Shown in pieces: positions 1 through 315 of a stretch of DNA of 315 nucleotides; position 1 is the first letter of the stretch; every line of letters starts with the position of its first letter. This DNA is from Escherichia coli (lineage in GTDB: Bacteria; Pseudomonadota; Gammaproteobacteria; Enterobacterales; Enterobacteriaceae). Where the stretch lies: NCBI RefSeq assembly GCF_003334335.1, contig NZ_QOWQ01000221.1; one strand, given 5' to 3'. Below the pieces are notes generated by a model. It was not told the origin of the DNA, did not search any database, and saw only the letters and a list, made by a program, of their open reading frames with translations. A program made the position numbers and the translations under genes.

Positions 1-315
1 TCTACTTCCTCTTCACCGACAAGGATGGCGAAAAATACGGTCGCGCAAACAAACTTTCTGGTCTGGATAAGGCGCTGGCTGCCGGGGCAACTGAAATCAC
101 GAAAGAAGAATATTTTGCCCGCAAAAACGGCACATACACAGGTTCACAACAAAATACTGATGCATCTGACACGACCGCACAACCAGACCTGGTAAAAGTT
201 ACCGCTGACGAAGTAAACAAAATTATGCAGGCAGCCAGTATCAGCCAGCCTGACGCCGATAAGTTGCTTGCTGCCTCTCGCGGAGAATTTGTTGCAGGGA
301 TTAGCGACCCGAATG
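1..315 (+). CDS. Internal fragment of a protein-coding gene, partial at both ends (codons begin at position 3; 104 complete codons, 3..314). Product: hypothetical soluble protein, function undetermined.
   Basis: Seen in sequence: the frame starting at position 3 has no stop codon across all 104 codons. About 43 of 104 codons begin with G (hand count: GCN/GAN/GGN/GTN), the periodicity expected of a true sense frame. Codon choice fits enterobacterial usage (ctg, ccg, gcg, cgc, aaa, gaa, acc, ggt), with no aga/agg/ata/cga/cta. The translation has a normal soluble-protein composition. Positions 1-2 (tc) and 315 (g) cannot complete a stop codon, so the ORF necessarily runs beyond both window edges. 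The only in-frame ATG (225-227) has no Shine-Dalgarno-like sequence upstream and is read as an internal Met. Product identity not recognised from memory; no homology search was possible. Confidence 0.8.

Follow-up and report, generated by a model that had tools for sequence, protein, structure and literature searches.

Conserved modules in the middle region of a YdfE-type lambdoid prophage exonuclease of Escherichia coli, with a candidate role in tethering or partner binding

What does a stretch of Escherichia coli DNA encode when one frame is open from end to end and its translation carries no familiar motif, and what might such a protein segment do? The window analyzed here (the whole stretch, 315 bases, 49% G+C) is stop-free in frame +3 (nucleotides 3–314) and gives the same 104-residue peptide, YFLFTDKDGEKYGRANKLSG...RGEFVAGISDPN, that was quoted in the initial annotation. 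The peptide lacks Cys, His and Trp, with Ala making up 14% of its residues and Asp, Glu, Lys and Arg together 27%. For any single frame, the probability of staying open over this length by chance is P = 0.006; of shuffled windows, 3.9% contain one or more such frames. The sense frame is backed by the 823-codon open reading frame to which it belongs and by homology at the protein level (PHROG 2082).

The window is 100% identical (megablast) to many complete E. coli chromosomes, where it falls within the coding sequence of WP_021565031.1, annotated as “exonuclease”. In E. coli strain G1/2 this is an open reading frame of 2,472 bp (L001 8833–11304) encoding 823 amino acids, of which the window supplies residues 391–494; the earlier view that it is entirely intragenic is thus borne out. 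Our main reading, which we rate as very probable, makes the window (positions 1–315, plus strand) an internal fragment, codons 391–494 of 823 in frame +3, of a YdfE-type exonuclease gene that is intact and lies in an ompW-associated lambdoid prophage; the probable tethering role set out below belongs to the same reading.

The gene is already known: E. coli genomes with an annotated copy number in the thousands, and several temperate phages that have been sequenced carry it too. Among 5,426 complete E. coli genomes, 4,047 match the window at 80% identity or more (megablast), always within a gene annotated as an exonuclease, and the window is 87–96% identical in temperate phages that include Evi, mEp460_ev081, Tritos, HannyBb, PhiR42_1 and the PPompW prophages. 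The order in strain G1/2 is racR ... dicB - DUF1482 (ydfD) - exonuclease - excisionase - integrase - ompW, and phages Evi, Tritos and vB_EcoS-689R5 likewise carry dicB - ydfD - exonuclease - xis - int. This arrangement identifies the locus as the early-left operon of a Rac/Qin-like lambdoid prophage, with ompW adjoining its integration site. It had been suggested that a novel system might lie in the surrounding region; the neighbors form an ordinary operon of this kind and give no sign of a novel system. The high-identity match to an annotated phage protein likewise essentially removes the novelty first entertained for the gene itself, with the proviso that this annotation was made by homology and not by experiment. 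PADLOC anti-phage defense models gave no match for the exonuclease or for two of its relatives, no Rfam RNA family was found in the window, and a repeat scan of the window returned just short matches at chance level.

Several copies of the gene are interrupted in the window region. In the PPompW prophage of the Stx2a-converting phage Stx2_14040 (L012 1433–3900) the record lists the ortholog as a pseudogene, “frameshifted by deletion of 4bp”; what has been lost is one GCAG copy of a GCAG-GCAG tandem (GCAGGCAG) at the equivalent of window positions 227–230. The other PPompW records listed give matches of 311, not 315, bases. Many E. coli protein fragments in the databases (P0125, P0056, P0064, P0040 and P0088) leave frame +3 and continue in frame +1 in the region of window positions 25–195, as in the fragment that reads ...DKDGENTVAQTNFLVWIRRWLPG...; several of these shifts lie near a run of five A residues at nucleotides 31–35. 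The shifted fragments may represent real pseudogenes or homopolymer sequencing errors. Because so many database copies are frameshifted in the window region, the gene appears to be dispensable in many lysogens, a point that weighs against the main reading.

The full-length protein aligns end to end with PHROG 2082, “exonuclease” (residues 1–823 against profile positions 1–823, 1838 bits), and the window peptide alone recovers positions 391–494 of the 823 in that profile (E = 1.2e-62). The sole match in our Pfam-A run was PF16473 (Rv2179c-like), at residues 641–813 (E = 2.7e-60); precomputed Pfam matches for the exact protein comprise PF27430 (YdfE_N) and PF27432 (YdfE_C) as well as the Rv2179c-like domain. 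The same C-terminal residues, 641–813, match T4 DexA (8kel), Rv2179c (4hec) and Cap18 (7t2s) in sequence or fold. The exonuclease motifs DLET (646) and HNALDD (796) were found, and the second exonuclease motif has Glu (NFE) where DexA has Asp. With its PF16473 match, DEDDh fold and acidic and histidine motifs, the C-terminal domain is predicted to be a DEDDh 3'-5' exonuclease, and we assume that it is active. Rv2179c-like proteins are single-domain proteins of 155–221 residues, whereas the window protein has 640 additional N-terminal residues; the window lies within this addition, outside the homologous domain.

This N-terminal addition begins with two folded domains, residues 1–207 and 240–344, which correspond to Pfam YdfE_N and YdfE_C. 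A long, acidic and mostly disordered middle follows, in which three short stretches are conserved as modules: residues 386–432 form a mini-domain (module A), residues ∼476–500 a linear motif (module B) and residues 551–566 a CxxC...CxxC zinc ribbon. Elsewhere in the middle, residues 345–383, 502–548 and 568–636 are predicted to be disordered in the full-length AlphaFold2 model. The zinc-ribbon motif, CxxC-x7-CxxC (CTACGQTGGGNCPDCG, L001 10483–10530), is downstream of the window and surrounded by disordered sequence, and residues 518–533 of K-12 RecE are almost the same; it gives a weak match to an NCBIfam zinc-ribbon (seleno)protein model (E = 0.022).

Within the window, positions 3–128 (plus strand) encode most of the mini-domain, a unit of ∼47 residues (∼386–432) that the window enters at residue 391. 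AlphaFold2 predicts a β-hairpin, a helix, a strand and a second helix (β-β-α-β-α), at a pLDDT of 94–96 in the full-length model and 75–83 in the model of the isolated region, the latter being of moderate confidence overall (mean pLDDT 63). The conserved residues of the mini-domain are GPFY, GRANK and G..EI(T/S).EE(Y/H).A(R/L)K; of these columns, R, GPFY, G and EI show no variation at all, and very little is seen in RANK, L, E and K. Positions 129–200 (plus strand) encode a low-complexity, poorly conserved linker (residues ∼433–456, TYTGSQQNTDASDTTAQPDL) whose pLDDT is below 50 in both models, in particular at residues 439–456, and which is the most variable stretch of the DNA and protein alignments alike. 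Two short helices are predicted from positions 201–256 (plus strand; residues ∼458–482, VTADEVNKIMQAASISQPDADKLLAA), both at low confidence (458–468 and 474–482, pLDDT about 50–64), and at this place the aligned relatives carry two alternative sequence types. The remaining positions, 257–315 (plus strand), begin the block shared with RecE and encode the first two-thirds of LAAxRGE(F/Y)VxGISDPxDPKW, which extends six codons beyond the window end; module B is modeled at pLDDT 77–83 with no regular secondary structure. Since the window thus encodes a mini-domain, a disordered linker, weak helices and most of a linear motif, it holds no catalytic residues.

K-12 YdfE, the product of the Qin pseudogene b1577, is 99% identical to residues 1–256 of the window protein, and the order dicB-ydfD-ydfE is common to K-12 Qin and the window gene. 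The K-12 gene is cut by IS2E after codon 256 and has neither the window region nor the nuclease. Given that identity to the truncated K-12 copy, the window gene represents ydfE in its intact state. It is the K-12 fragment that gave the Pfam YdfE models their name, and no Pfam family matched the mini-domain significantly.

The second K-12 relative is RecE (Rac exonuclease VIII), which occupies the same position in the early-left operon. A middle block is common to the two proteins (residues ∼470–626 against RecE ∼455–592, with BLASTP and blastn together placing it at residues 475–625), corresponds to part of the N-terminal region of RecE and runs from DKLLAASRGEFVxGISDPNDPKWVKG, including GISDPNDPKW, through the zinc ribbon to ...ADPxI (BLASTP); DKLLAASRGEFV.GISDPNDPKWVKG is nearly identical in RecE residues 455–480 (BLASTP). 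At the DNA level, K-12 recE aligns with gene nucleotides 1425–1874 at 78% identity (blastn), and since gene nucleotide 1425 is where the recE homology starts, it begins at window nucleotide 257. A helical domain at residues 261–380 is also common to many RecE-type relatives, and NF007259 (exodeoxyribonuclease VIII) aligns residues 246–626 with profile positions 271–603 at 284.9 bits, far below its cutoff of 1269. In contrast, K-12 RecE has no mini-domain, the first ∼80 codons of the window having no counterpart there (BLASTP), and it carries a different helical segment at the position of the helices encoded by 201–256.

The two proteins diverge at either end as well. The N terminus of RecE is of the Exonuc_VIII type (PF06630), whereas that of the window protein is of the YdfE type. 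The C-terminal PD-(D/E)XK nuclease of RecE (DUF3799, PF12684; RecE 564–866), described in a review (PMC11611040), is absent from the window protein, which has the Rv2179c-like domain instead, and RecE 600–866 gave no BLAST match in it. The polarities differ: the Pfam and structural matches of the window protein are to 3'-5' enzymes, whereas RecE is 5'-3' in the K-12 record. So do the neighbors, since recT follows recE in Rac-type loci and an excisionase gene follows the window gene.

The statement in the initial annotation that the protein could not be assigned to a known family does not survive these comparisons: RefSeq has the identical protein as a prophage “exonuclease”, PHROG 2082 covers it from end to end, Pfam places YdfE_N, YdfE_C and the Rv2179c-like family on it, its gene is K-12 ydfE in intact form, and one of its blocks is shared with RecE/exonuclease VIII. 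The accompanying remark that the peptide shows no catalytic or classical DNA-binding signature holds, and the guess at a scaffold-like or structural protein suits a non-catalytic middle region that is modeled by AlphaFold2 as small modules among disordered linkers.

How widely these modules occur was established with an exhaustive phmmer search (query residues 1–642), which gave 244 relatives at 50% clustering. A word-indexed homolog search with the window peptide returned almost solely short E. coli fragments, and the diverse relatives came from the exhaustive search. Segment-by-segment BLAST, covering 56 relatives of at least 300 amino acids, reveals a mosaic family. Module A (residues ∼385–432, GPFYFLFTDKDGEKYGRANKLSGLDKALAAGATEITKEEYFARKNG) is present in 17 of the 56 long relatives, at 43–77% identity, and module B (residues ∼476–500) in 23 of them; both occur together in four only. 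The module-A relatives, whose sources are Klebsiella aerogenes, Enterobacter and Pantoea, appear in the records as exodeoxyribonuclease VIII or as hypothetical proteins. Their nucleases are of at least three types: DEDDh, RecE-type (phrog_607/412, Pfam DUF3799) and phrog_7838, itself labeled “exonuclease”. In place of a nuclease, some have a phrog_26058 C-terminal region.

Exchange of the C-terminal nuclease behind shared N-terminal and middle modules is seen when L001 8833–11304 is set against L003 6787–9387, and in P0130, P0131 and P0126; at the other end, members of the mosaic family begin with either YdfE_N/C or Exonuc_VIII. The phrog_7838 relative P0130 (a Klebsiella aerogenes cluster; Logan contig L008 4693–8325) has a weakly Gam-like open reading frame upstream of its gene, and Sipho_Gp157 and DUF3268 genes, not recT, downstream. 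This neighborhood suggests that each nuclease type comes with its own accessory set. The C-terminal domain of P0130, the third nuclease type, was not found among PDB sequences. Relatives without RGEFVxGISDP (P0136, P0142, P0149, P0159, P0160 and P0190) have G(R/K)FS(I/V)(D/E)GL at the equivalent place after the mini-domain (alignment columns ∼135–160), and this may be the linear motif in diverged form.

What, then, might the middle region do? From their conservation and architecture, modules A and B would most likely serve in tethering or partner binding and are unlikely to be catalytic; the argument is that they persist, within long disordered linkers, while the attached nuclease changes. The same two modules would be retained beside a RecE-type PD-(D/E)XK, a DEDDh or a third type of exonuclease and would act as tethers or partner-binding elements that position whichever nuclease is attached, with DNA ends, or a host or phage partner, as the potential target of recruitment. 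More specifically, and only tentatively, we put forward the possibility that the mini-domain and RGE(F/Y)VxGISDPxDPKW are undescribed modules that bind a partner or DNA ends in enterobacterial prophage exonucleases whose catalytic domains are swapped. Searches of the searchable literature for ydfE, and for Rv2179c together with prophage, found no functional study of the exonuclease or of the window modules.

A tether presupposes that the window region is more than a flexible spacer that links the N-terminal domains to the nuclease, has no specific function and looks conserved because enterobacterial prophages share a recent ancestry and recombine with one another. The spacer reading draws on the predicted disorder of large parts of residues 345–640, on the high variability of the 433–456 linker and on K-12 RecE, which does entirely without the mini-domain and which, according to a review (PMC11611040), does not need its N-terminal region for basic recombination. 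We nevertheless regard it as rather unlikely: in the mini-domain, R, GPFY, G and EI stay invariant at an overall identity of only 33–76% among relatives from Klebsiella, Enterobacter, Pantoea and E. coli, RGEFxxGISDPxDPKW is kept while its flanks diverge completely, and the mini-domain is predicted to be folded, at a pLDDT of about 95. As far as alignments can tell, the invariant columns across genera weaken the case for a spacer. More radical is the proposal that coding is on the minus strand, with the long open frame there as the real gene. Frame -3 is open through the window (positions 2–315, minus strand) and for 164 codons in the full locus (L001 10005–10496, minus strand), but it is nested wholly within the 823-codon sense frame, all of which is covered by strong profile matches, and neither an annotation of the antisense frame nor a homolog was found in any record examined. 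Of the 41 differences between the window and phage Tritos, 26 are at third positions; the wobble positions of frame -3 are those of the sense frame, so this excess suits both frames equally and cannot separate +3 from -3, and we rejected third-position bias as evidence on the frame. Coding sequence is known to give rise to antisense open frames in a register that shares its wobble positions. We judge this one to be a typical shadow open reading frame and not a gene; that it should be real is scarcely credible.

A further alternative concerns the mini-domain itself, which might descend, in degenerate form, from one of two small domains already described: an inactive GIY-YIG nuclease core of the UvrC N-terminal type or, for its second half, a SHOCT-like helical hairpin. 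The GIY-YIG core has the order β-β-α-β-α, the same as that predicted for the mini-domain, and the UvrC GIY-YIG domain (1yd6) ranked second in Foldseek, with 29% identity over 34 columns; this match, however, has E = 1.5 and probability 0.2, and none of the PDB matches that Foldseek gave for the model of the window region was significant (best E = 1.3). By eye, GPFYFLFTDKDGEKYGRANKL resembles a UvrC segment in a GxY...YxGKAxxL-like pattern, yet in that alignment the position of the second Tyr is K, E or D and that of the catalytic Arg is Leu. hhalign produced no alignment with the N terminus of E. coli UvrC, a weak test with a single-sequence template, and a mini-domain profile run against PDB sequences met chance-level matches, with no GIY-YIG protein among them. 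Pfam scans of 20 members yielded weak SHOCT and DUF5417 matches only: SHOCT (PF09851) reached E ≤0.1 in 4 of the 20 (best 0.023), against none at E ≤0.001. An invariant Gly and Glu in the mini-domain fit the published description of SHOCT (PMC3581485). On both sides of this evidence, descent from either domain seems to us improbable. Identity as a GIY-YIG nuclease was not supported by Foldseek, hhalign, the PDB profile search or the residues at the catalytic positions. With no significant structural or profile match, the activity of the mini-domain is unconstrained, which weighs against the tethering or partner-binding reading; module B, too, resembles no fold or family so far described.

The window has little discovery value, coming from an ordinary early-left operon and a known, annotated gene, with nothing that points to a novel system. 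Its value is mainly descriptive: it falls within the part of RecE/YdfE-type proteins that has no assigned function, and it displays two modules that recur across different nucleases. The partners of these modules could clarify how full-length RecE and its isolated nuclease domain come to behave differently in recombineering, and also of what use a tethered 3'-5' exonuclease is to a lambdoid phage with no adjacent annealase. If the modules bind a ligand, this could explain the N-terminal region of RecE, which is known only to enhance linear-linear recombination.
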